The position numbers and the translations under genes were made by a program. A DNA stretch of 64,000 bases from Pseudomonadota bacterium (GTDB lineage Bacteria; Pseudomonadota; Gammaproteobacteria; Comchoanobacterales; Comchoanobacteraceae): the NCBI GenBank assembly GCA_036148435.1, contig JAYYHL010000007.1, positions 52,830 through 116,829 on the forward strand, in the 5' to 3' direction. The notes beneath the pieces are model-generated. The model did no database searches. It was not told the DNA's origin and saw only the letters and a program-made list of their open reading frames with translations. Of this stretch, positions 2,506 through 48,190 are shown piece after piece (the stretch's first letter is position 1; each line of letters begins with the position of its first letter).

Positions 2506-3321
2506 ATGTCATTATTCAATGTAACGCATTGTAAAGCACTGTGTTTTGCGGAAACATTCAATTTATCGCTCCTAAATGAGCGCCTAAAAAAGGATCCAGC
2601 TGTTTCATTGCATCGTTTTTCCAAGTTGCTTTTTGTGACCCATAGCTCAGCTCAATTTGAAATGGCCATATTTGAGTATGGGTCTGTTGTTTTTTGGAGC
2701 TGCGCCACTGATGATGTTAACACCACCAGGCAATGGTTAAATCGTTTTGCTAAAACCCACTACCCTAATACAGAAATGGAACAGTTTTTTGTGGTTTCTG
2801 GTGTAGAAAACAAAGTTTATGGTAAATCAATCACATTAGCAACTGACAATATGGCTACTAAAATCGCCATCAGTTATGCACTTGCCCAGGCTGTTAAACT
2901 TAATCAGTATGAGAATACTGTAGAAAAAACCATGTCAGAACTCGAGCATATTCCCGTGTCTTTGTATAAAACAGGACGCATACCCATTAGTCGCCACCAA
3001 GCCTTGAAAAAGACCGGGCAAATCTTTGTAGTTAAATCTCAAATCAACCTTCACAGCGACCTTATTGATACACCTGACTACTTTTGGGACAGGCCCGAGT
3101 GCGAGAAAATTTACATTGAAACGCTAAAAGAAATGGATATGTCTATTAGAATATCAAATCTTAACAGACGACTTGATATTATGAAAAATCTTTACGAACT
3201 TCTGTCTGATCACATACAGCACAGCCACAGTATCCTACTTGAGGTCACTATTGTTATCTTAATCAGCTTTGAGATTATCTTATCACTTGCCAGTATTTAT
3301 CTTGGAAAATTCCACGTCTAA
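2506..3321 (+). CDS. RMD1/DUF155 family protein
   Basis: 271 aa. The FEYGSVVFW motif is typical of the DUF155 core, and there is a single C-terminal TM helix (LLEVTIVILISFEIILSLASIYLG) as in the family. Confidence 0.6.
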   Translation: MSLFNVTHCKALCFAETFNLSLLNERLKKDPAVSLHRFSKLLFVTHSSAQFEMAIFEYGSVVFWSCATDDVNTTRQWLNRFAKTHYPNTEMEQFFVVSGVENKVYGKSITLATDNMATKIAISYALAQAVKLNQYENTVEKTMSELEHIPVSLYKTGRIPISRHQALKKTGQIFVVKSQINLHSDLIDTPDYFWDRPECEKIYIETLKEMDMSIRISNLNRRLDIMKNLYELLSDHIQHSHSILLEVTIVILISFEIILSLASIYLGKFHV

Positions 3322-8861: not shown

Positions 8862-9965
8862 CTAGGTCTCCCTTGGCTGATTTATTAAAGTCTCGAGCAA
8901 AGCCAATCTTGCTTCCCTTATTTGCTGTGCGATCACCGTGCCTTTGTATTGACTTATGATGGGTTTTAAATCAAGGTCCCCCAATACTCTTGAATACCAT
9001 GACCAAGCATTCATCACACCCACTGTTGCTAATTGACTTGCCTCTATCAACACGCAGGCTTTTTGAAATCGTTCATGGCGTCTAAATACATCCCATCTAT
9101 AAAACTGTGTTAATAAATGACAAGCTTTTTCTTTTTGGGTTGACCGCTGCTTGGTATAACTGAGTATGTGATTGATCAGAATGCCCAACTGTATTATTTC
9201 ACGCGGTGCTTTGAAATGTTTTAAGTTTTTAGAGTATGATGTAGAATCCAAGTACTGCCCTAGCAAGCAAAAACGCTCAGTACCGTACTGAATTCCTAAG
9301 CGGCCTAATACAGCACTGTCTAGCTCAGGCTTACAATAACCTGGCATGACTACCGGCCAAGCATGGGTGAGCACTAAGGCATCTACAAAGCGACTGGGCT
9401 CTGCTAACGTGAGTGCTTTTCGCCACTCTTGCCAAACACGCTCAGGTGTTAAATAAGACAGCTCGCCTGAGGCAACCATGTGCTGACTTATTAATAACGT
9501 GTCTGGATGAATGCTAAAACCCGGTAGCTTTGCATAAAACCTTGCAAGTCGTAACACTCTTAGTGGATCTTCCTCAAAGGCCTTTGATACGTGCCTTAGC
9601 CATTTTTGACCAAGGTCTGACAAACCACCATATGGATCAATGAGGACCCCGTTTTCGTCTTCTGCCATAGCGTTAATGGTTAAATCTCTTCTCAACAAAT
9701 CTTCCTCTAGCGTAACACACGGTGAGGCATCCACACTAAAACCGTGATATCCATGACCCTGTTTTCGTTCAGTTCTGGCAAGCGCATACTCTTCTTTTGA
9801 TTGAGGATGTAGAAAAACAGGAAAATCCTTGCCCACCTGTTGGTAACCCTGATTAAGCAAATCCTGAGGGCTTGCCCCCACCACAACCCAGTCCCTCTCT
9901 TGAACCGACTTACCAAGCCGTTTATCTCTGACTGCGCCCCCAACCAGGTATGTTTTCATGGCCAT
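8862..9965 (-). CDS. cca: tRNA nucleotidyltransferase (CCA-adding enzyme), short form without HD motif
   Basis: [42 protein letters not shown] and [10 protein letters not shown] are colinear with class II Cca. 367 aa. Confidence 0.9.
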
Positions 9966-10032
9966 CTCCCTCTTAAGTTATTGCTTTAAGTGTTTATGTG
10001 TAGTACCATTTATACCTGGAAGGATTTTAGAT

Positions 10033-20268: not shown

Positions 20269-20844
20269 ATGCACAATACTTTTAAGGTGCTAATTTTTTT
20301 GATTTTAATTTCCATTATAGAAGCAACCGCCGGAGAGCACAATGTAGAAAATATAGAGGGCAAGTGGTGTGGTGATAGCTTGGCAATAAATACTGAGCGT
20401 AATCGGATTGGAAAGATATGCCTTGAGTTTAAAATCGACAAGAAAACTGAAAATCGGGCGGTTGGGCGTGTTGTTGGATACGTTGAAATAACCTACGATC
20501 AATCCTTTGGTTTAAAGAGGCATCCACTTGAAAAATCAAACCAGAAAAAGCAGGTTTATGAGACAGTCTCACCCGCACTTTTTTCAGTGGTTAAGCTTGA
20601 TAATGGATCATTACCCGTTAGTATAGTTAGCCTGTCGCGGGAAAACAGAACAGCTCAGTTTTTTCTTGACACTGACTCTAAAATAAAAGGAGTGGTAAGC
20701 TTTCCACCTATGAATAAAAATCTAAATATTGCTTATTCATCAACTTATATGGGATCGAAGGTTACCGATACTGTGAGTAAAGATTTTGATATTAAATATC
20801 AAAGTTTAGTGTTGCAACTGAAAGCCGTTGGCTCACCTGTTTAA
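20269..20844 (+). CDS. secreted hypothetical protein, paralogue A
   Basis: Signal-like MHNTFKVLIFLILISIIEATA. 191 aa. Gapless alignment to paralogue B. No family recognised. Confidence 0.65.
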   Translation: MHNTFKVLIFLILISIIEATAGEHNVENIEGKWCGDSLAINTERNRIGKICLEFKIDKKTENRAVGRVVGYVEITYDQSFGLKRHPLEKSNQKKQVYETVSPALFSVVKLDNGSLPVSIVSLSRENRTAQFFLDTDSKIKGVVSFPPMNKNLNIAYSSTYMGSKVTDTVSKDFDIKYQSLVLQLKAVGSPV

Positions 20845-21204: not shown

Positions 21205-21780
21205 ATGCACAACACCTTTAAAGCTCTAATTTTTATATTTTTTATTGTAATTTTAGAAACACATGCTGGTGAGCAAAATATAGAAGATGTAGAAGGCAAG
21301 TGGTGCGGCAATAGCCTGGCAATAAATACTGAGCGTAACCGGACTGGAAAGAGATGCCTTGAGTTTAAAATCGATAAGAAAATTGAAAACCAGGCCGTTG
21401 GGCGTGTTATTTCATACGTTGAAATAGCACAAGATCAATCCTTTGGTGTAAAGAGGCATCCACTTGAAAAATCAAATCTGCAAAAGCAGATTTATGAGAC
21501 AGTCTCACCCGCACTTTTTTCAGTGGTTAAGCTTGATAATGGATCACTGGTATTTAGTATTCTTAGCCTATCTCGAAAAAACGGCCCTTCTCAAGTTTTT
21601 CTTGACACTGACTCTAAAATAAAAGGAGTGGTTAGCTTTCCACCTGTGAATAACAATCTAAATATTGCTTATTCCTCAGTTTACATGGGCTCGAAGGTTA
21701 TCGGTACTGTGAATAAAGATTTTGATACTAATTATCAAAGCTTAGTTTTTCAATTGAAAGCCGTTGGCTCAACTCGTTAA
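21205..21780 (+). CDS. secreted hypothetical protein, paralogue B
   Basis: MHNTFKALIFIFFIVILETHA. 191 aa. By my hand alignment, 44 differences out of 191 positions versus paralogue A, with no gaps. Confidence 0.65.
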   Translation: MHNTFKALIFIFFIVILETHAGEQNIEDVEGKWCGNSLAINTERNRTGKRCLEFKIDKKIENQAVGRVISYVEIAQDQSFGVKRHPLEKSNLQKQIYETVSPALFSVVKLDNGSLVFSILSLSRKNGPSQVFLDTDSKIKGVVSFPPVNNNLNIAYSSVYMGSKVIGTVNKDFDTNYQSLVFQLKAVGSTR

Positions 21781-33520: not shown

Positions 33521-33746
33521 ATTAAAAACACATAAAGATATCTTTACGTCATCAAAAGATTGTTATGTTAGTTTGATTTTTCAAGACAAGACTGACCATT
33601 AGCAATACAAAAGGATAAGCGCCTTGTTGACAATGGTTTAATTAATATTTAATCTTTATCAAACGCAGTCACAGCCACGGTGCCACCAAACTGTTTCCAC
33701 GGTGGTGACCTGCGCACCCACCACTACTAAGGAGTATAGCGCTGTC

Positions 33747-34727
33747 ATGCCTAATTTTAAAACAACCCAAAGCATCCTTGCACTCACCACAAGTCTGTTG
33801 GCAATGAGCCTAGAGGCTAACTATGCAACAAACGCCACGGCTAGAGATACAACCAACCCAAGGGCCTTTACAAAGCGTCTGCAAGCCGCCCCCACCCCCT
33901 CCACACACAACTATGAACAGACAACAGGTCACCGTCATACTCTCGATGGGAAGCCACGCCGGCTACTATCAGGCTCAGTAGCCTACGGTAGCCAGTACTG
34001 GTCATATGCCAAGGTAGACTGGATGGAGCCCATCTGGCAAAGCCGGGGCAAGCAGCTGTACACCTCGTTAGATTACATGAACCATCTACACAAAAGTAAT
34101 AGCCATAGTCATGAAATAGGCTCAGGCTTAGTGTTGTGGCAGCCATTAGCATCAGGTACGGAGATAGGCATGGGCGCTTATTGGTTGAATTATAATTCCT
34201 GGCACAATCTTAGGCATCATGGGCTTAGGCTGGGCGCCAAAGTTATTTGGCAAGATTGGCAGGTGACGGGTAATGGTTTTCTAAGGATTAGTAAAGCCAA
34301 ACAAGGCAAGCCAGCTCAAATAAAACACTCGTATTTTGGGACAGGTGTTTTCGGTTCAGAAGTCCTGGTAAACGGGTTAGATCTCATCCTAGAAAGGACC
34401 TTTAGCCCGCTAGAGGTTCAGATGCTTGCCTACCACTACCCTCAGGATGCCAACCAAAACCCACAACTACTGACTACGGGGGCCGGTGTGCAGATTAGAG
34501 CCCATCCAGACACATTAACAAAAAACGTGGTCCTCGTGCTGGAAGCCAAACATGACCAAGCTAAACGCTGGCTGTATATGATCGGCCTTCGTACAAGACA
34601 CGCTACCCACCACCATATTGGTAAGACCGATACAGACGCTAATAATCTTAAAAAACCGATGGCGAGGCGGGTGGAGGAGCCAGCAGTACGGCCGGATAAG
34701 CGAGCAGGGGAGCATCGGGGTAAATAG
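33747..34727 (+). CDS. inverse-autotransporter (intimin/invasin-type) beta-barrel-like outer membrane protein without passenger
   Basis: AAGGAG RBS 12 nt before ATG 33747. Signal peptide MPNFKTTQSILALTTSLLAMSLEA. GMGAYWLNYNS..GLRLGAKVIWQDWQVTGNGFLRIS, VNGLDLILERTFSP and GAGVQIRAHP..LVLEAKHD..LYMIGLRTRH are colinear with my memory of the intimin beta-domain (GYNVFID..RLGIGGEYWRDYFKSSVNGYFRMSGW, ANGFDIRFNGYLP, GVNYTP..MGIDYRHG..YSMQFRYQF). Confidence 0.5.
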   Translation: MPNFKTTQSILALTTSLLAMSLEANYATNATARDTTNPRAFTKRLQAAPTPSTHNYEQTTGHRHTLDGKPRRLLSGSVAYGSQYWSYAKVDWMEPIWQSRGKQLYTSLDYMNHLHKSNSHSHEIGSGLVLWQPLASGTEIGMGAYWLNYNSWHNLRHHGLRLGAKVIWQDWQVTGNGFLRISKAKQGKPAQIKHSYFGTGVFGSEVLVNGLDLILERTFSPLEVQMLAYHYPQDANQNPQLLTTGAGVQIRAHPDTLTKNVVLVLEAKHDQAKRWLYMIGLRTRHATHHHIGKTDTDANNLKKPMARRVEEPAVRPDKRAGEHRGK

Positions 34728-34841: not shown

Positions 34842-35468
34842 CTAAGCAAGACTTTTACCATACACAAGCCCCCAAAGACCCAGCGTCTTATCCAGGCAGA
34901 CGGTTTCACTTGGCTGTACTTTACTGCTTGACTGCTGCTGGCTTTCTTGGGTTTGCACGCTCAACAACAGCGTGCCGTGCTGCCGCCAGGCCTGTGTCCA
35001 TTGTAACTGCGTGTCCAGTGGGGCACTCCCTCTTGAAACAATCACCCCTACATCCCCACGAGGCTCAAGATCCAAAAAATTAACCTGTGAAACGTTTAAG
35101 TTCTTCAGGCCTAGCTCTGCGGCTGCAACCTTTATAAACGCAGCTTTTTTTCCAACTTTTTCCACACAGGTAACGGTTTGGTCGTCTTGAGCCAGCGCCG
35201 CTAGCACCACCCCGGGAATGCCGCCGCCTGAGCCTAAATCCATGATGGTGCTAAACCTTGAGACGACCTCAAACATTCGAATCGAAGGCACCACTAAAGA
35301 CCTAACCACCTCTTGTTCTTTCTTAATGGCCGTGAGGTTATAGACCCGATTCCAAGAACACATCAGTTGTACGTATTTTAAAATGTTATCCACCGCTGAT
35401 GGCGGTGTGGCAACATTTAACTGATCCAACGTGTTTTGTACCATACCTCTAACTGAATCAGACATCAC
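34842..35468 (-). CDS. rsmG: 16S rRNA (guanine527-N7)-methyltransferase RsmG (GidB)
   Basis: WNRVYNLTAI and the SAM motif DLGSGGGIPGVVLA. 208 aa. Confidence 0.9.
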   Translation of the reverse strand: MMSDSVRGMVQNTLDQLNVATPPSAVDNILKYVQLMCSWNRVYNLTAIKKEQEVVRSLVVPSIRMFEVVSRFSTIMDLGSGGGIPGVVLAALAQDDQTVTCVEKVGKKAAFIKVAAAELGLKNLNVSQVNFLDLEPRGDVGVIVSRGSAPLDTQLQWTQAWRQHGTLLLSVQTQESQQQSSSKVQPSETVCLDKTLGLWGLVYGKSLA

Positions 35469-36051
35469 CGCACCCTCTAAACATCAAAACACCAAACCGA
35501 ATACGCCCATGCACGGCCACACGGCAAGTGATAAACTTATCATCTAAAGGCCACGTATCAGACTTATCTTGCTCACAATACACCAAGCAACCTTTCTTTA
35601 AAGAAAAAGCACTCGACAACCACTCAAGCCCCTCTGTAACTGAGCAAAGCTGATAAGGTGGGTCCCAGAAAACAATATCTGGCGCCAGTGTTGTCAATAG
35701 GCTGTTTGGTAACGCATCCGGAAACCGCCATTGAATAGCCTGCCAGCTTGGTTCCTTAAACTGTAGGGCCAGTTGGCTCAAGTGATCTACCACATCTGCT
35801 TGGGCTTCAAGCGAATAAACAGTAGAGGCCCCTCGCGATAAAGCCTCCAACGAGAGAATACCTGAGCCGCTAAAACAATCAACCACTAGGGGGTCGTCTA
35901 CCGGGGTCAGATGGTTTAGCCAAGCAAACACGCGCTCCCGAATAAGTGACTTGACTGGCCTTATGCCGCTTGAGGGGACACTTGGCACAGACCGACCTCT
36001 GTGCCTGCCAGATAACACCCTGATTTTGCCTTTTTCTTTTGAGTCTGCCAT
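35458..36051 (-). CDS. rsmD: 16S rRNA (guanine966-N2)-methyltransferase RsmD
   Basis: RVLSGRHRGRSV, IRPVKSLIRERVFAWL, DCFSGSGILSLEALSRGA and FWDPPY. Divergent from ftsY, as in E. coli. Confidence 0.88.
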   Translation of the reverse strand: MADSKEKGKIRVLSGRHRGRSVPSVPSSGIRPVKSLIRERVFAWLNHLTPVDDPLVVDCFSGSGILSLEALSRGASTVYSLEAQADVVDHLSQLALQFKEPSWQAIQWRFPDALPNSLLTTLAPDIVFWDPPYQLCSVTEGLEWLSSAFSLKKGCLVYCEQDKSDTWPLDDKFITCRVAVHGRIRFGVLMFRGCGDV

Positions 36052-36133
36052 GGAAAAGACCGCGCGAATAAACCTTGCGCCCTTCGTTTTGTTTGTGTAA
36101 AATCAACCTTATCGCTTGATTTTTTATTATATC

Positions 36134-37078
36134 ATGATTTTTAACCCGTTTAAATGGGGGCGAGCCGCCGAAGCAACAGACGACAGCCTTCCTGCCTCTA
36201 AACTTGAAGCACAACAAAAACACAGGAGTAGCTGGTCAGGCTGGCTAGCCTCTTTTTGGCAATATAACACGGTTTCGCCAGAAAGCCTGTCAGTCTTACG
36301 AAAAGCGCTTATTAAGGCAGATGTCGGCCTGGTCACTGCCAACCGCATCCTTGACTTGTTGCAATCAAGGCATCGCCAAAACCAAGACGTCAAAGAATTG
36401 CTAAGACAGATTTTAAAAGAGGTGTTAGCGCCTTCTGATAGCCCTCTGGTCATAAACTCAGCACCAGAGGTTATCATGCTAGTGGGTGTAAACGGTGCCG
36501 GCAAAACCACGGCTGCCGCCAAATTAACCCACTACTTTAAGTCCCAGCACAAAAAAGTCATGTTGGCGGCTGGTGACACTTTCCGAGCAGGTGCCATTGA
36601 TCAGCTCAAAGTTTGGGGGGATCGACTGTCAACCCCTGTTATAGCCCAGAAACCAGGATCAGATAGTGCTTCAGTTATATTTGATGCCTATCAGGCAGCT
36701 CAATCACAGCAGGTAGACATTCTCATTACCGACACTGCTGGCCGCCTACAAAACAAAACCAACCTGATGCAGGAGCTTGAAAAAGTCCAGAGGGTTCTCA
36801 AAAAGAAAAACCCCCTGTGCCCACAACAAACCTGGTTAGTGCTTGATGCAACCGTGGGTCAAAATGGTCTTGAACAAGCTAAAGTGTTTCATCAAACCCT
36901 TCCGCTAACAGGGGTGGTCTTAAACAAAATAGACGGTACGGCCAAGGGGGGGATCGTGTTTTCAATTTCTGATCAACTGAACCTTCCTGTTCGTTTTTTA
37001 GGCACCGGTGAGCGAACCGAAGACCTCCTCCCCTTTGATAGCACGGCATTTGTAGGCACGATTATGGCTGCCGATTAA
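36134..37078 (+). CDS. ftsY: signal recognition particle receptor FtsY
   Basis: GVNGAGKTTAAAKL (G1), DTAGRLQNK (G3), LNKIDGTAKGG (G4) and LPVRFLGTGE. Confidence 0.95.
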   Translation: MIFNPFKWGRAAEATDDSLPASKLEAQQKHRSSWSGWLASFWQYNTVSPESLSVLRKALIKADVGLVTANRILDLLQSRHRQNQDVKELLRQILKEVLAPSDSPLVINSAPEVIMLVGVNGAGKTTAAAKLTHYFKSQHKKVMLAAGDTFRAGAIDQLKVWGDRLSTPVIAQKPGSDSASVIFDAYQAAQSQQVDILITDTAGRLQNKTNLMQELEKVQRVLKKKNPLCPQQTWLVLDATVGQNGLEQAKVFHQTLPLTGVVLNKIDGTAKGGIVFSISDQLNLPVRFLGTGERTEDLLPFDSTAFVGTIMAAD

Positions 37079-37113: not shown

Positions 37114-38235
37114 TCACAAACCGCGTTCTTCTTTTAGGCTTGTCCTCAAATGCTTTCTTCTTGTAAACCCATCAACACAGTGCCGGTCTAGTGAATAAAC
37201 AAGCCCGCTTACCAGGTGACACATATGCAGGTAGTCTGACCAACTCATAATGCCCGCATGACAATGTATGTATCGGGCCGGTACCCCTATGACAACCACA
37301 GGTACTCCCTTGCCGTATTGTTGATAGCCTCTTGCATTGGTGCCGCCACTTTCTCTTACTGCAAGTTGCACCGGTATGTTTAGATGATCGGCAACTTTTT
37401 TAATATGCGCACAGAGTTCTTGGTTCATGATACAGGTTGGGTCATATAGCCTTAGCTGTGGCCCACACCCCAAACGCCCTTGACAACAATCTTGTTCCAG
37501 CACATCATCTGCGGGTGGGGCTTCCAAAACTACAACCACATCAGGCTTTGCAAGATGCGCCATGGCGGCAGCGCCTCTGATGCCTACCTCTTCTTGAACA
37601 CTTCCCCCTGCGATCAACGTGTTTGGTAGTGTTGCGTTTTCTAAATGCCTCATCACCTCAATCATCACCCCGACACCCGCTCTGTTATCTAATGCCTTGG
37701 CGCACACTCGATCTTGATGCGCCATGTTTGAAAATTTTGTGGCAGGAACAGCCACGTTACCAATGGTAATCCCTAGGCCTTTGACCTCACTTTCACTAGT
37801 TGCTCCCACATCAATACGCAGCTCGGCAAAAGCAGGGTTTTGCTTAAAGTGAGCACTTCTGGCAGTTATGACTCCAAGTACGGTCCCGTTTGGGGTATGA
37901 ATTTCTACCATTTGAGCCGGGAGCACCTCAGGCGCCCACCCTCCTAAACAAACAAAACGTATAAGCCCATTTGACTGAATTGCCTTCACCATGAAACCAA
38001 CCTCATCAAGGTGTGCATCAAGCAGTATCCGAGGCCCCCCTTTGCTCCCTTCGCGCTCAACCATGGCGCCACCGAGACCATCATGTACCACCATTCCTAG
38101 CTGGCCAACCTGTTCTAAAAACAGATCCTTAACCGGCTGCTCGTGACCAGAGGCGCCAGGGGTATTACACAAAGCAGCCAGCAATGACCGCTTTGGCCTT
38201 GGCGGGTTAAGCACTGTATCAAAGTTAAAAGACAT
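37114..38235 (-). CDS. M42 family metallopeptidase (glutamyl aminopeptidase / FrvX-like)
   Basis: LLDAHLDEVGFMVKAI, ALDNRAGV and GGSVQEEVGIRGA. AGGAGG RBS before ATG 38235. Confidence 0.85.
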   Translation of the reverse strand: MSFNFDTVLNPPRPKRSLLAALCNTPGASGHEQPVKDLFLEQVGQLGMVVHDGLGGAMVEREGSKGGPRILLDAHLDEVGFMVKAIQSNGLIRFVCLGGWAPEVLPAQMVEIHTPNGTVLGVITARSAHFKQNPAFAELRIDVGATSESEVKGLGITIGNVAVPATKFSNMAHQDRVCAKALDNRAGVGVMIEVMRHLENATLPNTLIAGGSVQEEVGIRGAAAMAHLAKPDVVVVLEAPPADDVLEQDCCQGRLGCGPQLRLYDPTCIMNQELCAHIKKVADHLNIPVQLAVRESGGTNARGYQQYGKGVPVVVIGVPARYIHCHAGIMSWSDYLHMCHLVSGLVYSLDRHCVDGFTRRKHLRTSLKEERGL

Positions 38236-38589: not shown

Positions 38590-39222
38590 TTGAAAGCCGT
38601 GGCAACCTTCCATGAAGTCAAGTTCTCTTCGCTTTTAAGTCCACTTAATTGGACCATAAATGAAGGAGAGTTTGCTTGGTTGACCATCCCACACCCTGCA
38701 GATCATTCCGCTGCTATTGATACTATTTTTTATAGAAAGCCTCCTCGTCATGGTCATATAACCCTTTGGCCATCTGTAACACATAAACACTGCACACGTT
38801 TAGTGTCACTGCGGGCACCAGCCTTACATAAAAGAAGCTTATTGTACAATATCAGGTTCCCCCACAGCCTAAACCACAAACACTTAAACGCCCCCCTGGA
38901 TGACTCAGTAGCTGACCTGCTTAGCTTGTTTGAATTAGACAACTTAGCTCAAAGGCCTTTTGAAGAGGTGGAACCGAGTGCCCAAATCAAAACTTTGATT
39001 GCCAGGGCCTTGCTGTTTTCACCCAGGCTTATCATTCTTGATAATATCTTACCAACGATTGAATCAGAAGTAGCCTGCCGACTCTTTACCATACTTCACG
39101 CACTAACAAGGCATGGTCTATGCGTTTTGAACTTATCCCCCATAACCCCTAATTGTAGTCAACAATCACTTGTGGGTATCAATGCGACTGTGCTCGTTGA
39201 GGAAACGCAGCATGAACAGTAG
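38590..39222 (+). CDS. FtsE-like ABC-fold protein with all nucleotide-binding motifs degenerate (TTG start, uncertain)
   Basis: Colinear with FtsE (FHEVKF..INEGEFAWLT.., LDNLAQRPF.., ..LIARALLFSPRLIILD.., ..HGLCVLNLS). Walker A, signature, Walker B and H-loop are all replaced. Synteny ftsY..[this]-[FtsX-like]-rpoH. Confidence 0.6.
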   Translation: MKAVATFHEVKFSSLLSPLNWTINEGEFAWLTIPHPADHSAAIDTIFYRKPPRHGHITLWPSVTHKHCTRLVSLRAPALHKRSLLYNIRFPHSLNHKHLNAPLDDSVADLLSLFELDNLAQRPFEEVEPSAQIKTLIARALLFSPRLIILDNILPTIESEVACRLFTILHALTRHGLCVLNLSPITPNCSQQSLVGINATVLVEETQHEQ

Positions 39223-39946
39223 GGTCAAGAATGTTGGCTGCTGTCTTGGGCTTGCTTGTTGTGTTCTTCTGGGACTGTTTAGTCAGTTGTTTGTCTTCGC
39301 TGTTTTTAAGGGAAAGCTGACCGCGGTCATGACCTTCTCTGAGGCAGGACATCAGCAGCTCTTTTCACAATCACCTCTTTATTATCAGTACTATCCTAAA
39401 AGTAAGGGGCTTTTTTCTGCGTCGGACTACCAAGATCTTGCGTCAACTTTTCGAGACAAATCAAGTATTCCTGATGCTTACTGGTTCCTACTGTCTAGTA
39501 ATACGCCACTGCTGTCATCTGAAACTCAACGATTAGGCCCTGATCTTTTTGTGGACAACCCACTGAGTATGCCAGGTTCCGCACCTTTGGTCGTACTTTG
39601 CTACCTCGTTTTTATGTGTTGCTTTTTTCTACTTTGCCCAGCTTGTCTGTTTTTACCTCAAGACTACTCAGCACATCTTTGCGTGCTGGCTCACGAGCAT
39701 CAACCCTTGGGGGCTGTGATTAAATTTAGCATGGCCATGCTTTTAAGAGCCGAGCTGGTTAGCCTAACAGTCTCGCTATTTGTTTATTTAGCTATCGCTA
39801 GCTGGCTGAATAGCCTAGCTATAACAAACCCGTGGTTGACCAACCTCATGAGCGGTATATGGACTATTTTTTGTCTGCACCTATTGCACTTTATTGCCAA
39901 TGCCATACTCAAGCCCATTCATCAAGCACGACTTCAAACACGTTGA
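39212..39946 (+). CDS. FtsX-like membrane protein (assignment mainly by synteny and topology)
   Basis: One N-terminal TM (CCLGLACCVLLGLFSQLFVFAVF), about 100 aa of extracytoplasmic domain, then three C-terminal TMs. Overlaps the FtsE-like stop. Immediately upstream of rpoH. Confidence 0.45.
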   Translation: MNSRVKNVGCCLGLACCVLLGLFSQLFVFAVFKGKLTAVMTFSEAGHQQLFSQSPLYYQYYPKSKGLFSASDYQDLASTFRDKSSIPDAYWFLLSSNTPLLSSETQRLGPDLFVDNPLSMPGSAPLVVLCYLVFMCCFFLLCPACLFLPQDYSAHLCVLAHEHQPLGAVIKFSMAMLLRAELVSLTVSLFVYLAIASWLNSLAITNPWLTNLMSGIWTIFCLHLLHFIANAILKPIHQARLQTR

Positions 39947-40002
39947 TTTCTAATGGCTCCTGTGTTATAATATTCCTCTTTATAAATATCAGGAGAGGGG
40001 CC

Positions 40003-40863
40003 ATGATAACACAAACCATGCTGCCAGCCTGTTGTGGTCTAGGAAGCATTGAAGCCTATATCAGGTGGACACACCAAGTGCCGATTTTGTCAAAAGATGA
40101 AGAGCGCATGCTCTACACACGGTTCAAAGAAACCGGTGATGTTAGTGCAGCAAGAAAGCTCATCATGTCTCACCTACGGTTTGTGGTTTATGTGTCAAAG
40201 AGTTATTTAGGCTACGGGCTGCCTCAGGCTGACATTATTCAAGAAGGCAATATTGGCCTTATGAAGGCGCTCAAGCGTTTTGACATCAGTGTGGGGGTGC
40301 GCTTTGTGTCGTTTGCCGTCTACTGGATTAAATCAGAAATTCAGGAGTTTGTCTTACGAAACTGGCGGATCGTGCGCGTAGCAACCACTAAGTCACAACG
40401 CAAGCTCTTCTTTAAACTCAGAAGCTTTATGCGTAGTAACCATTGGCTCACCAGTGATGATGTTGCCCATATATCGTCATCTCTAAACGTCCCTGAAAAA
40501 GATGTCACGACCATGCAGCAACGACTGTATGCTGCCGATGTTGCCTTAGCGGCCCAAGACAGTCTTGAACAGGGTCAAACATCTTCGTCAAGACAGGTGG
40601 CACTGAGCTCTACAACGCCTTCACCAGAAGTTCACTATATAGAAGAACTCACTCAAAGGCAACAAAAGCAATGGCTAGAACAAAGCTTACAGCACCTTGG
40701 ACAAAGGAGCGCAGATATCATCCGAAAGCGTTGGCTGCAATCCCCTAAAGCAACCTTGCAATCGTTAGCCACTCACCATAACGTTTCTGTAGAACGTATT
40801 CGTCAGCTTGAGCACAAGGCCCTTGAGACACTCAAAGCAGCTTGCCAAACAGATGAAGCTTAA
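40003..40863 (+). CDS. rpoH: RNA polymerase sigma-32 factor RpoH
   Basis: SHLRFVVYVSKSYLGYGLPQADIIQEGNIGLMKALKRFD, the RpoH box QRKLFFKLR, and VSVERIRQLEHKAL. AGGAGAG RBS before ATG 40003. Confidence 0.96.
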   Translation: MITQTMLPACCGLGSIEAYIRWTHQVPILSKDEERMLYTRFKETGDVSAARKLIMSHLRFVVYVSKSYLGYGLPQADIIQEGNIGLMKALKRFDISVGVRFVSFAVYWIKSEIQEFVLRNWRIVRVATTKSQRKLFFKLRSFMRSNHWLTSDDVAHISSSLNVPEKDVTTMQQRLYAADVALAAQDSLEQGQTSSSRQVALSSTTPSPEVHYIEELTQRQQKQWLEQSLQHLGQRSADIIRKRWLQSPKATLQSLATHHNVSVERIRQLEHKALETLKAACQTDEA

Positions 40864-41947: not shown

Positions 41948-43828
41948 TTAATCAAGAGCGGTCTCTGTTTGTTTCTTTTTTAATGCCACTCGTAAAAGCG
42001 AAATAGCAGCCGGTGTAATGCCACTTATTCGGCTTGCTTGCCCTAGGGTATAAGGCCTTGCTTTTGACAACTTTTCAAGACACTCGGTAGACAAGCCTTT
42101 CACATCATTGTAATTAAAATCACTGGCAATACATTGACTATCGTCCTTTTTAGCTCGGGCAATCTCTATCTTTTGTCTCTCAATATAGCCATGGTACTTT
42201 TCTTCGACTAGTACTTTTTTTAGTGCTTTTCCACAGGGGAATTTAGACGGGTATAGGTTTTGGAGCAAGCTGCTGCTGATGCCTTTTCGTTTGATCAAGG
42301 CTAACAAGGCGGTCGACTCATTGACCTCGCCTTCAACGGCTTGGCAAAAAACACCATGTTCGGGGCTTCCTGGCACAAGTTTGATGGCTTCCATCTGCGC
42401 TCTTGCCTGTATAACTTTCTCTTTATCTTGCATGATCTGTCTTTGCTGGTCGCTGGTAAGCAAGCCTAGTTTTACCGCATTATCAGAGAGTCTATCGCAT
42501 GCATTATCCTCTCTTAATAACAGTCGATATTCAGCCCTACTTGTAAACATTCGATAGGGCTCCAACGTCCCTTGGTTAATTAAGTCATCAATCAATACAC
42601 CGATGTATGCTTGATCGCGGGTAGGAAACCAGGGGCGCTCGTTTTTTTGCTTAAGCGCTGCGTTAATGCCCGCAATGAGTCCTTGTGCAGCAGCTTCTTC
42701 ATAGCCAGTGGTGCCGTTGATTTGCCCCGCCAAAAACAGACCTTTTATGTTCTTGGACTCAAGCCAAGGATAAAGCCCTTGAGGGTTAAAAAAATCATAT
42801 TCAATCGCATATCCTGGTCTTGTTATGTGCGCTTTCTCTAAACCGAAAATCGTTGTAACCATGGCATGTTGGATCTCAAACGGCAAGCTTGTTGAAATAC
42901 CGTTTGGGTACACTTCATCAACATCAAGCCCTTCTGGTTCTAGAAAAACTTGGTGTGACTGCTGATCTGCGAACCGATATACTTTATCTTCTATAGAGGG
43001 GCAATATCTTGGGCCCTTACCCACAATGTCACCACAAAACATGGGCGACTTCTGTATGTTCTGCTTAATTAGCTCATGCGTCATAGGGTTAGTATGCGTG
43101 ATAAAGCAAGAAACAGAAGGAGGCCTTGTGATTGCCGTCCCCCAAACATTAAACCCCTCGGTTAGGGGGTCTGTTGGCTGTGCTTGTAGATCAAGAAAGT
43201 TGATTGAGTTCTTAGCAATTCTTGGAGGGGTTCCTGTCTTCAAACGGCCAAAATCATCCGAATTAGTGTGGGTCCGCAGAAAAGTTGATAACTGGGTAGA
43301 GGAGGCATCTCCCGCTCTGCCACCGTCTATGTTTTTGCGCCCCACATGGATCTTTCCAGATAAAAAAGTGCCTGTTGTTAATATAATTTGACAGGCTTTA
43401 AATCGGGCCCCCATATCAGTCACAACACCTGTAACTTGGCCCTGCTCAAGGAGTAAGTCCGAAACACCTTGTTGAAAAACCTTTAGGTTTTCATGCTTAT
43501 CCAATAGCATTCGAATTGTTTTTTTATAAATAAACCGATCAGCCTGAACTCGGGTTGATCGAACAGCAGCACCTTTATTTTCATTCAGTGTTTTGGCATG
43601 AATGGTTGCGTGATCAGCAGCAACAGGCATGAGTCCCCCCATGGCACTGATTTCCTTAACTAAGTGCCCCTTTCCGATCCCACCTATGGCAGGGTTACAT
43701 GAAAGAACGCCCAAGGTGTCAATGCTGTGGGTAATCAAAAGCGTTTGCGCACCTATTCTTGCACTAGCAGATGCAGCCTCAACGCCAGCGTGGCCGCCGC
43801 CGACTACGATAACATCATAACTAAACAA
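41948..43828 (-). CDS. mnmG: tRNA uridine 5-carboxymethylaminomethyl modification enzyme MnmG (GidA)
   Basis: YDVIVVGGGHAGVEAA FAD motif, SCNPAIGGIGKGHLVKE and GPRYCPSIEDK. Confidence 0.97.
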   Translation of the reverse strand: MFSYDVIVVGGGHAGVEAASASARIGAQTLLITHSIDTLGVLSCNPAIGGIGKGHLVKEISAMGGLMPVAADHATIHAKTLNENKGAAVRSTRVQADRFIYKKTIRMLLDKHENLKVFQQGVSDLLLEQGQVTGVVTDMGARFKACQIILTTGTFLSGKIHVGRKNIDGGRAGDASSTQLSTFLRTHTNSDDFGRLKTGTPPRIAKNSINFLDLQAQPTDPLTEGFNVWGTAITRPPSVSCFITHTNPMTHELIKQNIQKSPMFCGDIVGKGPRYCPSIEDKVYRFADQQSHQVFLEPEGLDVDEVYPNGISTSLPFEIQHAMVTTIFGLEKAHITRPGYAIEYDFFNPQGLYPWLESKNIKGLFLAGQINGTTGYEEAAAQGLIAGINAALKQKNERPWFPTRDQAYIGVLIDDLINQGTLEPYRMFTSRAEYRLLLREDNACDRLSDNAVKLGLLTSDQQRQIMQDKEKVIQARAQMEAIKLVPGSPEHGVFCQAVEGEVNESTALLALIKRKGISSSLLQNLYPSKFPCGKALKKVLVEEKYHGYIERQKIEIARAKKDDSQCIASDFNYNDVKGLSTECLEKLSKARPYTLGQASRISGITPAAISLLRVALKKKQTETALD

Positions 43829-44239
43829 GCATTGATCCTAAAAAATTAAATCTTACCAAAAAACAATGAAGAAGTCAAAGCACAACCCCTTGTTAGATTG
43901 TCATAAAAGTGTTAATTCTTGTCTTGCTAGTATGAACAGGACTTCCTTTTTTGAGGTCCGACTTTTTACTACAGTGCGGGTATTGTGCTGGGGGTTCTCT
44001 TTTGTGCTTTCTTACGCTGTCTCCATTCTCTTCTTTGTTTCCACCTGGATCATGGGGGCTCTTTTCGTTGAAGGATCTACCTATCGTTTTATCAACATAC
44101 GGCTCTTCTTTTTGATAAGCTATGTATCCCCCTTGGGGGGTGCTATGCGAATGTCGAGAGGTTACAACAAAAAGCGTTGCATACACCTTGGCAGTCCCAA
44201 ATGAGAATTATGCCACCTTCTTTTTAGCCGCGATGAACC

Positions 44240-45556
44240 TTATTTGCCTAAGCAAAATTGTCCAAATATGGAGCCCAAGAGATCTTCTGTTGTGTAGGAG
44301 CCAACAAGTTCCGCAAGGGTGTTTTGTACCAGCCTTAGGTTTTCTGCTAGCAAATCGACACTATTGACAACAGTTTCGGCCGTTTTGCATTGCTGGTAGG
44401 CACGGTCAAGCGCCTGAACATGTCGGTTTCTCACAAAGAATGTTTCTTGGGGGGGCATGGGCGAAAGCTTTTTAATAGATTTATCTAGCAGGGTATTTAT
44501 GCCTTGGTTGTTTTTTGCAGAAATAACGACATCCATTGACGAAGTATTTGATGGTGCAACAAGGTCCGCTTTACTCTGAACCCATAACACATTATCAAAG
44601 TTTGGGGTGAGCGATTGCCAATGTGTTTGCTCGTCGTCGGCAGGACAAAGGCACCATACTAAATCAGCCTTGCTAGCTAACTGAATGGCTTTTTCTATAC
44701 CTATCGTTTCAACTTTGTCGTGAGTTCCTCTAATGCCAGCTGTGTCTGTCAACTTGAGTAACGCATTTTTATGATAAAGCTGTATACTCAGCGTGTCTCG
44801 AGTTGTGCCAGGCTGGTCGGTAACAATGGCAACGTCCTCATTCGCTAGTAAATTGAGAAGTGTTGACTTGCCACTATTAGGTGGGCCGATGATGGCTATA
44901 GAAAAGCCATCTTGATGCCTCAATACTCGTCTGGAGGAGACACACAACGCGTTAATATCTTGAGCAAGGCTGTTGATGTCAGTCTTTAATCGGCTGTGTT
45001 TATGGGGCGCGATATCTTGATCAGAAAAGTCAATGCTTGCCTCGACCTGTACTCGTATCGCTTCTAAGCGCTTTTGTATCGGGTAAACTTGATCTGCAAA
45101 CGCACCACTCATACTTGCTTGTGCGGCCTTTGCTTGGGTAACGGTTTGAGCGTCTATCAAATCAACCACAGCTTCTGCTTCCAATAAATTCATCTTGCCA
45201 TTGAGGTATGCCCGCTGTGTGAACTCTCCTGGTAGCGCGGCTCTTGCTCCATGGCTGATAAGCGTGCTTATCATGGCATCAATGATTAATGGGTTTCCGT
45301 GAGCATGAAGTTCTAACACGTCTTCTCCTGTGTAAGAGTGGGGCCCTGGAAAATATAAATATAGCGGCTTATCGATAACCTTTTGGTCTTCGCAATAAAA
45401 GGGGCCAAGCGTGGCAACTCTTGGTTGCAATCTCGCGGCGTGTTGCCTAGTAATAGAACGATACAACGCCAAACATAAGCTGCCGCTCACACGCACAATA
45501 CCTATGCCTGATCGCCCCATGGCAGTCGAACAGGCAACAATAGTATCATCCGTCAT
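44240..45556 (-). CDS. mnmE: tRNA modification GTPase MnmE (TrmE)
   Basis: DTIVACSTA.GRSGIGIVRVSG, G1 GPPNSGKSTLLN, DTAGIR, and the C-terminal FCLGK. Confidence 0.96.
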   Translation of the reverse strand: MTDDTIVACSTAMGRSGIGIVRVSGSLCLALYRSITRQHAARLQPRVATLGPFYCEDQKVIDKPLYLYFPGPHSYTGEDVLELHAHGNPLIIDAMISTLISHGARAALPGEFTQRAYLNGKMNLLEAEAVVDLIDAQTVTQAKAAQASMSGAFADQVYPIQKRLEAIRVQVEASIDFSDQDIAPHKHSRLKTDINSLAQDINALCVSSRRVLRHQDGFSIAIIGPPNSGKSTLLNLLANEDVAIVTDQPGTTRDTLSIQLYHKNALLKLTDTAGIRGTHDKVETIGIEKAIQLASKADLVWCLCPADDEQTHWQSLTPNFDNVLWVQSKADLVAPSNTSSMDVVISAKNNQGINTLLDKSIKKLSPMPPQETFFVRNRHVQALDRAYQQCKTAETVVNSVDLLAENLRLVQNTLAELVGSYTTEDLLGSIFGQFCLGK

Positions 45557-45559
45557 CGC

Positions 45560-47200
45560 CTAGGTGTTTTTTTTGTTGAACGCGCCATATTTGCTCATGA
45601 TGTAGTACTGTTGTAGATAACTGAGAACATTGTTTGTGATGGAATAGAGCACAAGTCCTGCAGGAAATTGGGAAAACATGAAGCACATCATCAAGGGCAC
45701 GATCATCATGGCCTTTTCTTGTGCGGGATCTCCTTGAGGTGGTGACAACCGTTGCTGTAGCAACATACTCACCCCCATTAGAACAGGTAAAATGTAATAT
45801 GGGTCTTTACTGGCTAAATCAGGGATCCATAAAAACGGTGCAAGTCTTAACTGGACACTTTCGATAAGAACATAGTATAAGGCGATGAAAAAAGGCAAGG
45901 GTAGAACTGTCGGTAAACAACCACTGCGGATGGGGTTTATGGACTCTTCCTGATACAGCTTCATCAACGCTTGATTTTTTAGAGAGGACTCGTCTTTATA
46001 CTGTTCATTGATGGCGTCAATTCTTGGTTTTAGCTTTTTTTGCTTCGCTATCGTTCTGTAGCTTGATTCTGACATTTTATAAAAGACAAGCTTAACTAGC
46101 ACTGTGGTCATGATGATCGCAACGCCCCAGTTTCTAAGGTATTTCTGAATGAAGACCATAACCTTAAAAAGTATGTCTGAAAGAAACCACAACCACCCAT
46201 AGTCAACGGTCAACTCTAACCCCTTCGCCAATCCAGACAATAATCTGGCAATTTCTGGACCAGCGTAGAGTGTAGACAAGACCTCGGCCTGTTGCCCAGG
46301 GAGTAGTGTAATCTCCGGCCGCTTATTGTCGAACCACAAGGATTTTCGAGTTAAAACCTCACTATTTTTGGACAAAAAATTTGAAGTAACGATCTTCTCG
46401 GCCTTGCTACGGTCCACCCATGCTGTGATGAAATATCGTTGCTGCATGGCAATCCAATTTTCGCCCGTGACAATCTTTTTAAATCCTTTTGACTCTATGT
46501 CTTTGAACGGTAGTTTTACGTATGGGGTCTCTTCTGTGTAGAGAGCAGGCCCTGTGTATGTACTGAACGTGAACCATCCAGGTTTAGGCTGGTTTGGGTC
46601 TATGGCCAACGACGGGGATTTTTCTTCAATTGGGAAATCTTGTTGTAAATTGAAGCGGTTGTGATGCGCTGTTACTAGATTGCTTTGGGACTGGTTGAGA
46701 ACCCTTGACTTGAAGTCTATTGCATAGGACCCGCGTTTACAGGTTATGGTTTTTTCATACACAACGCCGCTTGGCTGTTTGGCCGTGAAGGTTGCCACTA
46801 CCTCGTCGCTATTTTGCGCCAGTTTAAAGTAACTTGAGTCAGTTACAAACTCTAGCTGGTGATCTTTGCCAAACCCTGCCTGAGCAGTATACAGGTGCCT
46901 AGGCTGTTTGCTGAATAAGTCGAACGGTTCGGCGTTTGTTGTACTTTGGGGGTACCCTTTAAGTTGTACTTGGGTAATGGTTGCGCCCAACTTGTTAACA
47001 CTGACCCGTAGTAAGTCTGTCTCAATGGTCACTTCTTTGGCTCGGACAATTTCAGGCTCTTTGATTTGACTGTTAGGCGTTGCAGATACCCCCAAGACCT
47101 CACGACTGTCTTGCTTGTGGTCAATAACCCACGCTTGCCAAAGCATGACTAACAGAAACGACAACAGTAGTAATAACAGTGGTTTTTGTGATGAACTCAT
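45560..47200 (-). CDS. yidC: membrane protein insertase YidC
   Basis: N-terminal TM, a large periplasmic domain, and the conserved C-terminal core (WGVAIIMTTVLVKLVFY, NPIRSGCLPTVLPLPFFIALYYVL, YILPVLMGVSMLLQQ). Confidence 0.95.
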   Translation of the reverse strand: MSSSQKPLLLLLLSFLLVMLWQAWVIDHKQDSREVLGVSATPNSQIKEPEIVRAKEVTIETDLLRVSVNKLGATITQVQLKGYPQSTTNAEPFDLFSKQPRHLYTAQAGFGKDHQLEFVTDSSYFKLAQNSDEVVATFTAKQPSGVVYEKTITCKRGSYAIDFKSRVLNQSQSNLVTAHHNRFNLQQDFPIEEKSPSLAIDPNQPKPGWFTFSTYTGPALYTEETPYVKLPFKDIESKGFKKIVTGENWIAMQQRYFITAWVDRSKAEKIVTSNFLSKNSEVLTRKSLWFDNKRPEITLLPGQQAEVLSTLYAGPEIARLLSGLAKGLELTVDYGWLWFLSDILFKVMVFIQKYLRNWGVAIIMTTVLVKLVFYKMSESSYRTIAKQKKLKPRIDAINEQYKDESSLKNQALMKLYQEESINPIRSGCLPTVLPLPFFIALYYVLIESVQLRLAPFLWIPDLASKDPYYILPVLMGVSMLLQQRLSPPQGDPAQEKAMMIVPLMMCFMFSQFPAGLVLYSITNNVLSYLQQYYIMSKYGAFNKKNT

Positions 47201-47223
47201 CGAGATAGCTCCTAAGGTTTATT

Positions 47224-47448
47224 TCATAATGGGTCGACACCCCCTCTCGCGAATGGGTGACATCGTAATAGGCGAAAGAGGACAAGCTTGGTGGCTTTGA
47301 TACAGCCGTGGGTTCTGTATGCATCCAGGGCGTATTGTGAACAAGTCGGTTCAAAGCGGCACCGTTTGTGAAGATGTGGGCTTACCCACTTTTGGTACAT
47401 CAAAATCATGGTAATACAGAGTTTATTTGCTTTTCTATGTTGCTCCAT
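47224..47448 (-). CDS. yidD: membrane protein insertion efficiency factor YidD
   Basis: YQKWVSPHL..RCRFEPTCSQYA...CHPFARGGVDP. 74 aa. Confidence 0.9.
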   Translation of the reverse strand: MEQHRKANKLCITMILMYQKWVSPHLHKRCRFEPTCSQYALDAYRTHGCIKATKLVLFRLLRCHPFARGGVDPL

Positions 47449-47735
47449 TGATGCATTGTTCCTCTATAAAAGTCTCTTTTGACAAAAGGGTCCGGCTTCT
47501 TGTGGGCAATAACAACAACCTGTGCTGTTCTGTTTAATTTTGACTTTTGCCAACATGTACGGTGTATGCGCTTAAAGTAGTTTCTTGCCACGGCAAGCTT
47601 CCAGTCTTTTTTTTTACAAATTACTCTTAACGATGGCAAAAAGGGGACACTGTTTGTGCTACACCGTACTTTCATGGTAAAGGTTTCACAGTGGTAACTT
47701 TTTCCGCAAACCATCTGCTTGTACGTTACACGCAC
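47406..47735 (-). CDS. rnpA: ribonuclease P protein component (start uncertain; the GTG at 47735 overlaps the rpmH end)
   Basis: Position between rpmH and yidD. Basic 109-aa product with [15 protein letters not shown] (the RNR-motif region) and VVVIAHKK. Confidence 0.85.
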
Positions 47736-47860
47736 AGGCTATGACGCCCTTTCTGACGCCGTCTGTTGATCACCTTGCGTCCATTCGCTGTCCTCATTCT
47801 CACCCTGAACCCATGGGTGCGTTTTCGGGATTTAACACTGGGATTGAACGTTTGACTCAT
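47726..47860 (-). CDS. rpmH: 50S ribosomal protein L34 (not in ORF track, below its size cut-off)
   Basis: Hand translation of the minus strand from ATG 47860 gives [44 protein letters not shown] (44 aa). GAGGTG RBS upstream. Confidence 0.93.
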
Positions 47861-47940
47861 GTGCTTACACCTCAAATAAAGGCTTTATTATATATGAAAA
47901 GTAAAAGGAGGTCAAATCCTGAGAGATTAGTTTCAAATGT

Positions 47941-48190
47941 TTATCCTGCGGTCCCAACCGTTTTGTTTACGATTCACCGAATGTATATTATTAATAGTTA
48001 TTATGAATAGTTGTTTGTTTATAGACGCTAGGAAAACAGTGATAACTAAAATTTTTATTTTTTTATCAGGGCATTAAGATGTGTTGATCTTGTGGATAAG
48101 GCTTGACAAAACATACCGCTGGGCTGTGAATAATAAGGTTCTCATGTGACCACACGGTTGTAGGTTGTTTTACTGGGATCTATCCACAGA
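47941..48190. other. candidate oriC: DnaA-box cluster plus AT-rich stretch upstream of rpmH
   Basis: Perfect DnaA box TGTGGATAA at 48091-48099. 8/9 boxes TGTGAATAA (48125-48133) and CTATCCACA (48180-48188, opposite orientation). 6/9 box TTATCCTGC (47941-47949). AT-rich 47975-48065 (..ATGTATATTATTAATAGTTATTATGAATAG..AAAATTTTTATTTTTTTATC..). GATC at 48077 and 48177. Confidence 0.5.

Follow-up and report, generated by a model that had tools for sequence, protein, structure and literature searches.

Between ftsY and rpoH, the 64,000-nucleotide stretch of contig JAYYHL010000007.1 analysed here (the window) encodes two adjacent proteins in the place of the cell-division complex FtsEX: an FtsE-like protein that has lost the motifs for ATP binding and hydrolysis, and a membrane protein that resembles FtsX. 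In the systems studied so far, FtsE, an ATP-binding cassette (ABC) protein, binds and hydrolyses ATP and thereby brings about conformational changes, relayed through FtsX, that activate periplasmic hydrolase regulators; the literature treats FtsEX as a transmitter of signals whose working requires the ATPase activity of FtsE (PMC11627006). The FtsE-like protein of the window is very probably a pseudo-ATPase derived from FtsE and maintained by selection, its inactivity being judged from its sequence. The fuller reading, which is favoured here with moderate confidence, is that the two genes are an orthologous ftsE-ftsX pair forming an old pseudo-ATPase FtsEX that is kept for an ATP-independent structural role. 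That grading covers the pseudo-ATPase identity and the scaffold mechanism jointly, and confidence in the scaffold mechanism itself is modest. No published naturally ATPase-dead FtsE was found in the open-access papers searched. The two genes are as follows.

38590-39222, + strand: FtsE-like open reading frame (ORF), 210 aa
39212-39946, + strand: FtsX-like membrane-protein ORF, 244 aa

The original prediction placed the FtsE-like ORF correctly, and it runs without a stop codon or frameshift. The uncertainty over its start is real: the ORF has no ATG, and gene callers disagree between TTG 38590 (NCBI, 210 aa) and GTG 38599 (ENA/Logan, 207 aa). A one-residue variant of the protein is recorded at NCBI as 'MAG: hypothetical protein VXW87_01800 [Pseudomonadota bacterium]' (MAG, metagenome-assembled genome). 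The motifs were read from a MAFFT alignment (A1) in which the canonical gammaproteobacterial FtsE of Methylobacter luteus (locus L008) served as reference.

38680-38718, + strand: Walker A-equivalent (residues 31-43), LTIPHPADHSAAI versus canonical LTGHSGAGKSTLL; core IPHPADHS versus GHSGAGKS
Q-loop-equivalent, LRAPALHK versus canonical IFQDYKLL (core RAPA versus FQDY); the alignment is less certain here
38842-38862, + strand: LYNIRFP (residues 85-91), the N..(F/L)P segment behind the Q-loop, kept
38968-38991, + strand: signature-equivalent (residues 127-134), VEPSAQIK versus canonical LSGGEQQR
39031-39063, + strand: Walker B/D-loop-equivalent (residues 148-158), IILDNILPTIE versus canonical ILADEPTGNLD
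39130-39144, + strand: H-loop-equivalent (residues 181-185), NLSPI versus canonical IASHD; no His

The glycine-rich loop, the Lys and the Ser/Thr of Walker A are all lost, and in Walker B Asp151 alone survives, the catalytic Glu having become Asn. The claim that every ATPase motif is ablated therefore stands for Walker A, the Q-loop, the signature, the Walker B Glu and the H-loop His, and fails for D151, which is invariant; besides this residue, the N..FP segment behind the Q-loop is also retained. Ten columns of A1 are invariant across the canonical and three degenerate proteins, including G55, N87, P91, A138, R139, P145, D151 and G176; N87 and P91 are thus shared by all four sequences. From general ABC architecture, LYNIRFP would correspond to the region of the helical subdomain that faces the membrane subunit. 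The non-catalytic scaffold segments noticed earlier (GEFAWLT, IARALLFSPRLIILD and HGLCVLNL) are present in A1 as well. Because hmmalign to a hidden Markov model (HMM) of FtsE (56 canonical FtsE, mostly Methylococcales) aligned the C-terminal part of the window protein only, the motif assignments rest on A1 and on the colinear NCBIfam match described below.

Despite this erosion of motifs, both genes are under purifying selection. A Global Ocean Sampling (GOS) contig of 1,446 bp from a related species (L082, identical with L083) covers the C-terminal half of the FtsE-like gene, all of the FtsX-like gene and the beginning of rpoH. Ratios of nonsynonymous to synonymous divergence (dN/dS, or omega) were calculated between the window and GOS orthologues by the Nei-Gojobori method, with bootstrap 95% intervals.

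FtsE-like, C-terminal half: 110 codons, 66% aa identity, dS 1.33, omega 0.155 (0.07-0.29)
FtsX-like: 244 codons, gapless, 64% aa identity, dS 1.06, omega 0.218 (0.14-0.32)
rpoH: 106 codons, 94% aa identity, dS 0.93, omega 0.038 (0.011-0.08)

The intervals for both genes of the pair lie well below 1. In neutral simulations at the window-GOS divergence, a 244-codon frame stayed open in 0/2000 runs and a 113-codon segment in 0.45% of runs. The degenerate motifs are themselves conserved, with VEPSAQIKTL, IILDNILPTIE and LIILDNILPTIE identical between the window and GOS species. Constraint is also unevenly distributed. In the FtsE-like protein, omega is 0.085 over residues 99-182, which include the Walker B-equivalent, and 0.51 in the C-terminal tail; in the FtsX-like protein, it is 0.105 in the periplasmic loop, 0.08 in the second transmembrane segment, 0.37 in the cytoplasmic loop and 0.46 across the third and fourth transmembrane segments. 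Such patterned constraint argues for proteins with functional surfaces rather than drifting DNA, and purifying selection on both genes points to a working pseudo-enzyme rather than a dying gene. Selection on an overlapping feature was considered and rejected: the candidate rpoH promoter is confined to the extreme 3' end of the FtsX-like gene, whereas the constraint spans 1.3 kb.

At closer range, a sister MAG (GCA_036043205.1, JAYYAM010000013) is 99.9% identical over 20.6 kb, with 14 single-nucleotide polymorphisms, two of them in the FtsE-like gene (38976, synonymous, and 39007, A140S) and one in the FtsX-like gene (39283). The A140S change recurs in marine metagenome contigs, where there are three variant sites. 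This strain-level variation is too sparse for dN/dS. The single indel relative to the sister MAG in the 20.6 kb is an intergenic 5-nt insertion, TCCCC in the sister, at window position 33512.

At the level of sequence, the FtsE ancestry of the protein is shown by synteny, by its best NCBIfam match and by a chain of profile comparisons. The best NCBIfam model is TIGR02673, FtsE (E=4.7e-9, 36.2 bits), and the alignment is colinear, pairing window residues 14-180 with model positions 16-191 of 214. The chain runs through the FtsE-like proteins of two relatives, L001 and L003 (described below), which reach 98.7 and 94 bits on TIGR02673 against ~65-68 bits for the next family, a lead of ~26-34 bits. 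By hhalign, the window group matches the L001/L003 group (P=97.4%, E=9e-12), which in turn matches 56 canonical FtsE (P=99.2%, E=2e-19); the direct comparison of the window type with canonical FtsE gives E=1.7e-4. Membership of the FtsE family, which the earlier reading had assumed, is thus supported by the profiles. A PDB profile search with the four degenerate proteins did not discriminate FtsE, since YtrE, BSEP, MetN and FtsE scored alike. The AlphaFold2 (AF2) model of the protein adopts an ABC nucleotide-binding-domain fold, with a predicted local distance difference test score (pLDDT) of 71.8 and a predicted template-modelling score of 0.74. Its top Foldseek match in the PDB is Streptococcus pneumoniae FtsE (6z4w; E=7e-10, template-modelling score 0.65), and the best 50 of the 948 matches at E<=0.001 are all ABC nucleotide-binding domains.

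Compared with the FtsE of FtsEX (type VII ABC family; TIGR02673; structures 6z4w, 8idb and 8hd0), the window protein occupies the same slot, after ftsY and before ftsX and rpoH. It is of like length class (210 versus about 220 aa), colinear, and predicted to have an ABC nucleotide-binding-domain fold. It keeps the Walker B Asp, the N..FP segment and the IARAL..P..hhhD block. Unlike FtsE, it is without Walker A, the Q-loop Gln, LSGGQ, the catalytic Glu and the H-loop His, and it would be incapable of the ATP-powered cycle of conformations by which EnvC/amidases or RipC/PcsB are activated in the systems studied.

The second protein of the pair is a probable, unproven FtsX orthologue, to judge by its position, the overlapping-gene arrangement and its hydropathy. 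Its ORF is open from TTG 39170, and the start is most likely ATG 39212 (244 aa), as in the sister MAG and the GOS orthologue. This start is accompanied by one further feature.

39199-39204, + strand: Shine-Dalgarno-like GAGGAA, seven nt 5' of ATG 39212, within the 3' end of the FtsE-like gene

Counting the stop codon (39220-39222), the FtsX-like gene overlaps the FtsE-like gene by 11 nt; in the GOS contig, L001 and L003 they likewise overlap or lie end to end. As had been described from the translation, the ORF is intact, without stop or frameshift, and has four hydropathy-predicted transmembrane segments (~14-32, 124-142, 180-200 and 215-233; Kyte-Doolittle, a crude method). The loop between the first and second segments is ~90 aa, and the hydropathy pattern matches that of Methylobacter FtsX. 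Canonical FtsX (PF02687; extracellular domain PF18075) likewise lies directly downstream of, and overlaps, an ftsE-type gene, and likewise has four transmembrane helices with a large loop between the first and second. The loop resembles the FtsX extracellular domain weakly and colinearly, below significance, by way of the L001/L003 proteins. Unlike canonical FtsX, the window ORF lacks ~75 N-terminal residues, and its loop is ~90 aa versus ~130.

The genomic position of the pair is that of ftsEX. The neighbouring features are listed below in window coordinates.

34842-35468, - strand: rsmG
35458-36051, - strand: rsmD
36116-37078, + strand: ftsY, encoding the signal recognition particle receptor; ORF opens at TTG 36116, annotated start in the sister MAG 36134 (TIGR00064, 318 bits; PF00448, E=2e-74)
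37114-38235, - strand: M42-family aminopeptidase (PF05343, E=3.8e-83)
39943-39971, + strand: candidate sigma-70-like promoter, TTGATT, 17 nt spacer, TATAAT, with TG (consensus scan, 10/12 matches)
40003-40863, + strand: rpoH, encoding sigma-32 (TIGR02392, 329 bits)
3' of rpoH: a DsbA-like gene, then mnmG

With ftsY as the upstream anchor and rpoH as the downstream anchor, the locus retains the conserved ftsY-[ftsE-ftsX]-rpoH synteny. The order proposed at the outset (ftsY, FtsE-like, FtsX-like, rpoH) is confirmed by the TIGR00064, PF05343 and TIGR02392 matches, as is the insertion of an M42 gene after ftsY. This gene is absent between ftsY and rpoH in all four related loci examined (L001, L002, L003 and L004), and because the FtsE-like gene directly follows ftsY in L001 and L003, it is taken as a lineage-specific insertion; it cuts the FtsE-like gene off from the ftsY transcription unit. 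The candidate promoter sits at the 3' end of the FtsX-like gene, 5' of rpoH. The wider order rho-parB-parA-rsmG-rsmD-ftsY-[E][X]-rpoH-dsbA-like is common to the window, L001 and L002, with the pair deleted in L002; the L003 and L004 contigs are shorter and show the ftsY-to-rpoH core alone. Another ORF in this region (33702-34727, + strand; 326-341 aa, hydrophobic N-terminus, no Pfam match) lies between parA and rsmG. It is probably a lineage-specific insertion like the M42 gene, parA and rsmG being adjacent in L001 and L002.

The pair is known from four lineages only. When the window FtsE-like protein was used as query against a word-indexed set of 5.8 billion proteins, only the query itself came back, and a HMMER scan of 1.84 billion representatives found one true relative, a GOS fragment of 112 aa (P0006), together with generic ABC proteins. 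Alignment-based searches with the FtsE-like and FtsX-like sets yielded nothing beyond the four lineages already known, and a scan of metagenome contigs the same GOS contig only. The informative comparisons came from a genome-collection scan with RpoH, in which the nearest genomes stand at 50-54% RpoH identity. Two of these, with 51-53% RpoH identity, bear the label 'uncultured Coxiella sp.': L001 (Tara Oceans MAG, CAXGBK010000154) and L003 (single-cell genome AG-899-I04). Between ftsY and rpoH, each encodes an FtsE-like protein (213-215 aa) and a membrane protein (249-258 aa). Their FtsE-like proteins (L001:8581-9228 and L003:1330-1971) are 38% identical over 194 aligned residues (BLASTP); synonymous sites between the two are saturated (pS ~0.8), so that only amino-acid identities are used. 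Both keep the P-loop as GxSGSG(L/V)TTLLR with the lysine replaced by Leu or Val, and both have the signature LCP(K/Q)A, a Walker B of ID(R) with Arg in place of Glu, and no switch histidine. These pairs thus have the same locus and two-gene arrangement as the window and appear to be catalytically dead as well. Unlike the window protein, with which they share 22-27% identity, they retain the glycine-rich P-loop and score ~95 bits on the FtsE model, and the window type would be a further-eroded branch. The L001/L003 type may represent an intermediate class of its own among dead FtsE proteins, perhaps still able to contact phosphate or nucleotide. Derived features common to the window and L001/L003, KT(L/I)(I/L)ARAL, D(N/R)(I/F)(L/F) and ILH.LT.HGL, fit a single old inactivation followed by further erosion, and since distant relatives hold a less eroded, likewise dead FtsE, the loss of the ATPase motifs appears to be old.

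The P-loop retained in L001 and L003 also raises the possibility of a cryptic ATPase, in which nucleotide would be bound or hydrolysed through relocated, non-canonical residues. The invariant Walker B D151 is compatible with this, and reviews describe migrated catalytic residues in some pseudoenzymes (PMC10211241). In the window protein, however, the P-loop glycines, Lys and Ser/Thr, the Q-loop Gln, LSGGQ, the catalytic Glu and the switch His are absent together, and no alternative glycine-rich loop is seen in its sequence. A cryptic ATPase is therefore regarded as extremely improbable.

In two further genomes of the scan, ftsY is followed directly by rpoH, with spacers of 154 bp in L002 (L002:9835-9989; MAG DS_MAG35) and 59 bp in L004 (L004:2797-2856; MAG UBA1673). 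In these assemblies ftsE and ftsX are cleanly deleted within otherwise conserved synteny, and the derived states of the clade are accordingly dead with a P-loop, fully eroded, and deleted. Most obligate intracellular bacteria have no FtsEX (PMC10591338), and the losses there and in L002 and L004 would reflect the same pressure, reduction of the divisome in bacteria that are host-associated or probably so. Unlike in those cases, the window genes are retained and constrained. The second of the two alternatives originally offered is that the genes are early-stage pseudogenes, freed from selection and not yet marked by stops or frameshifts. The absence of every catalytic motif and of an ATG start would suit such decay, as would the tiny score on the FtsE model (36 versus 265 bits), an FtsX-like ORF that HMMs do not recognise, the deletions in sister lineages and the frequency of FtsEX loss in intracellular bacteria. 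Yet omega is low in both genes, even at its bootstrap upper bounds, at a dS of ~1; the 244-codon alignment is gapless; neutral frames of this size almost never stay open; and the degenerate motifs are identical in two species. Moreover, intact ORF pairs stand at the same locus across ~50% RpoH divergence: neither ORF is disrupted in the window, the sister MAG, L001 or L003, and in the GOS contig the FtsX-like gene is complete and the FtsE-like gene is cut by the contig end. The omega values and the dead pairs in relatives therefore favour the first alternative, a pseudo-ATPase, and early decay is largely refuted and must be considered highly improbable.

How could an FtsEX of this kind work? 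The FtsE-like protein would retain the ABC fold, the Walker B Asp, the N..FP segment and the block of helix and strand surrounding what were the signature and Walker B, having lost every residue needed for ATP binding or hydrolysis. With the P-loop, signature and catalytic residues gone, no ATP-sandwich dimer should be possible. Under the pseudo-ATPase reading, the protein would instead cap the FtsX-like membrane protein on its cytoplasmic side, statically and independently of nucleotide, and the complex would serve as a scaffold or anchor rather than as an ATP-driven switch. It would act by way of the constrained periplasmic loop in the FtsX-like protein, by contacting cytoplasmic division proteins, or in both ways, with that loop and the constrained signature/Walker B region of the FtsE-like protein as its working interfaces. 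This scheme presumes that the two proteins form a complex, that they have a role in division and that the FtsE-like protein binds no nucleotide.

Some precedent exists in Escherichia coli. FtsEX acts on FtsZ and FtsA in divisome assembly, in E. coli without need of ATP hydrolysis, and an ATPase-dead FtsEX that is unable to block division rescues ΔftsEX phenotypes given a redundant separation pathway (PMC7343993). ATPase-dead FtsE alleles such as FtsE D162N (Du, Pichoff and Lutkenhaus, 2020; PMC7343993) show partial function without hydrolysis. The proteins from these laboratory alleles are still able to bind ATP, and they block the synthesis of septal peptidoglycan, whereas the natural window protein appears to have lost the whole binding site and, unlike them, would have long co-evolved with its partner. 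A more specific proposal can be advanced tentatively, as a possibility that is on balance doubtful: the pair may be a natural separation-of-function FtsEX, in which an FtsE long free of nucleotide, in a marine and probably protist-associated clade, is kept for the ATP-independent half of FtsEX function, control of the septal hydrolases having passed to another system. Such a pair would anchor or recruit a periplasmic partner via the FtsX loop, or organise FtsZ and FtsA, and no FtsEX working wholly without an ATP cycle would have been reported before it.

A different outcome of the same divergence is that the pair has been neofunctionalised, that is, selected for work outside division, either as a membrane complex with a new partner in the periplasm or cytoplasm or with the FtsE-like protein alone as a regulatory adaptor. 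The extreme divergence from canonical FtsE and FtsX is in keeping with this, as are the missing N-terminal cytoplasmic region and shortened loop of the FtsX-like protein and the M42 insertion, which uncouples the pair from ftsY. The periplasmic loop, the most constrained part by its omega of 0.105, fits the existence of some partner without saying which. There is no pointer to any specific new function, however; locus, gene order and overlapping genes are those of ftsEX, and ATP-independent division activities of FtsEX are documented in E. coli (PMC7343993). Neofunctionalisation is thus a credible but unlikely account.

The window FtsE-like protein falls far below the family cut-offs (36.2 versus 264.85 bits for TIGR02673, and 16.5 versus 25 for Pfam ABC_tran). 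Several observations weigh against a pseudo-ATPase FtsEX retained for a structural role. The AF2 fold of the FtsE-like protein is supportive only, being biased by an input alignment that contained canonical ABC proteins. The FtsX-like proteins of the window, GOS, L001 and L003 have zero Pfam or NCBIfam matches at E<=10, and hhalign against 57 canonical FtsX is not significant (E=0.05-0.4). The lowest of these values, E=0.05, belongs to the L001/L003 pair and is not significant, though the alignment is colinear over 202 columns and patterns of the FtsX extracellular domain are recognisable. The AF2 model of the FtsX-like protein, from a three-sequence alignment, is unusable (pLDDT 39.7). The omega values of 0.16-0.22 are 4-6x that of rpoH, so that constraint is relaxed, and residues 1-96 of the FtsE-like protein are perhaps far less constrained still, since no orthologue covers them and they have no BLAST similarity to L001. 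A check for transcripts found no RNA run listed for the region. The deletion of both genes in L002 and L004 implies that the pair is dispensable in some backgrounds. Finally, ~85 kb of the genome has been seen, and an intact ftsEX elsewhere would lie outside it.

The last point corresponds to a further explanation, that canonical ftsEX genes reside elsewhere and the window pair is a redundant, fast-evolving extra copy. Inspection covered the 64-kb window and about 10 kb beyond, and the window does contain one canonical ABC ATPase (9958-10965). This protein is 335 aa long and paired with an ABC-2 permease, hence not FtsE; no second ftsE occurs within the 64-kb window, the sole other ABC ATPase being that of the ABC-2 exporter. 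In addition, the degenerate pair itself holds the ancestral ftsY-ftsEX-rpoH position, where relatives show a degenerate pair or nothing. A diverged paralogue is therefore very unlikely.

Debate continues over which FtsEX functions really require the ATP cycle (PMC7343993). A lineage without a nucleotide site in which both proteins remain under selection would be a natural experiment on the ATP-independent core of FtsEX, and its constrained parts, the signature/Walker B block of FtsE and the periplasmic loop of FtsX, point to interfaces that matter. The pair also documents an intermediate between intact FtsEX and its complete loss, and thereby a route of divisome reduction, in a clade that spans canonical, P-loop-bearing but dead, fully eroded and deleted states. 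The genes are now annotated as 'hypothetical protein', and family cut-offs would miss them.

The setting of the locus is that of a probably host-associated lineage. The source is an uncultured marine gammaproteobacterium, and its closest sequenced relatives are MAGs and single-cell genomes that go under the label 'uncultured Coxiella sp.'. Among marine sequences named 'Coxiella' or 'Coxiellales', many fall in GTDB order UBA7916, Candidatus Comchoanobacterales, whose members are obligate choanoflagellate associates with reduced genomes (PMC9418006). The window also encodes, at 17655-19508 (- strand), a 617-aa protein that combines ankyrin repeats with BspA-type leucine-rich repeats and is a candidate eukaryote-like effector, suggesting host association. 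Ankyrin and leucine-rich-repeat proteins are typical of host-associated bacteria. The 3' end of this ORF overlaps the 3' end of the convergent recF (16780-17838, + strand) by ~184 nt. Between the ankyrin gene and gyrB lies a low-GC island (34% versus ~43%) with tandem paralogues at 20269-20844 and 21205-21780, each of 191 aa; the two are 78% identical, have N-termini like signal peptides and match nothing in Pfam.

Past the window end, the sister contig (L086:10420-20417) carries glmU, glmS, efp, murB, dapF, dksA and a YkuD-type L,D-transpeptidase gene, along with genes for fructose-bisphosphate aldolase, a small GTPase (MMR_HSR1) and Fe-S cluster biosynthesis (PF01521). Because the peptidoglycan genes glmU, glmS, murB and dapF and the YkuD-type gene are encoded, the cell should still have a wall to divide. 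The ABC-2 exporter of the window (9958-11741, + strand) consists of the 335-aa ATPase, which scores 103 bits on ABC_tran, above the cut-off, and an ABC2_membrane permease; this canonical ATPase indicates that ABC motifs are not generally eroded in this genome.

Among the remaining observations, dnaA-dnaN-recF lie at 14220-17838, and the cumulative GC-skew minimum is near 44 kb, in the region of mnmG, mnmE, yidC and rpmH (42000-48000). The distance between them suggests that the replication origin may be ~30 kb from dnaA; rpmH adjoins rsmB, not dnaA. An RMND1/DUF155-family protein (E=1e-44) is encoded at 2506-3321 (+ strand).

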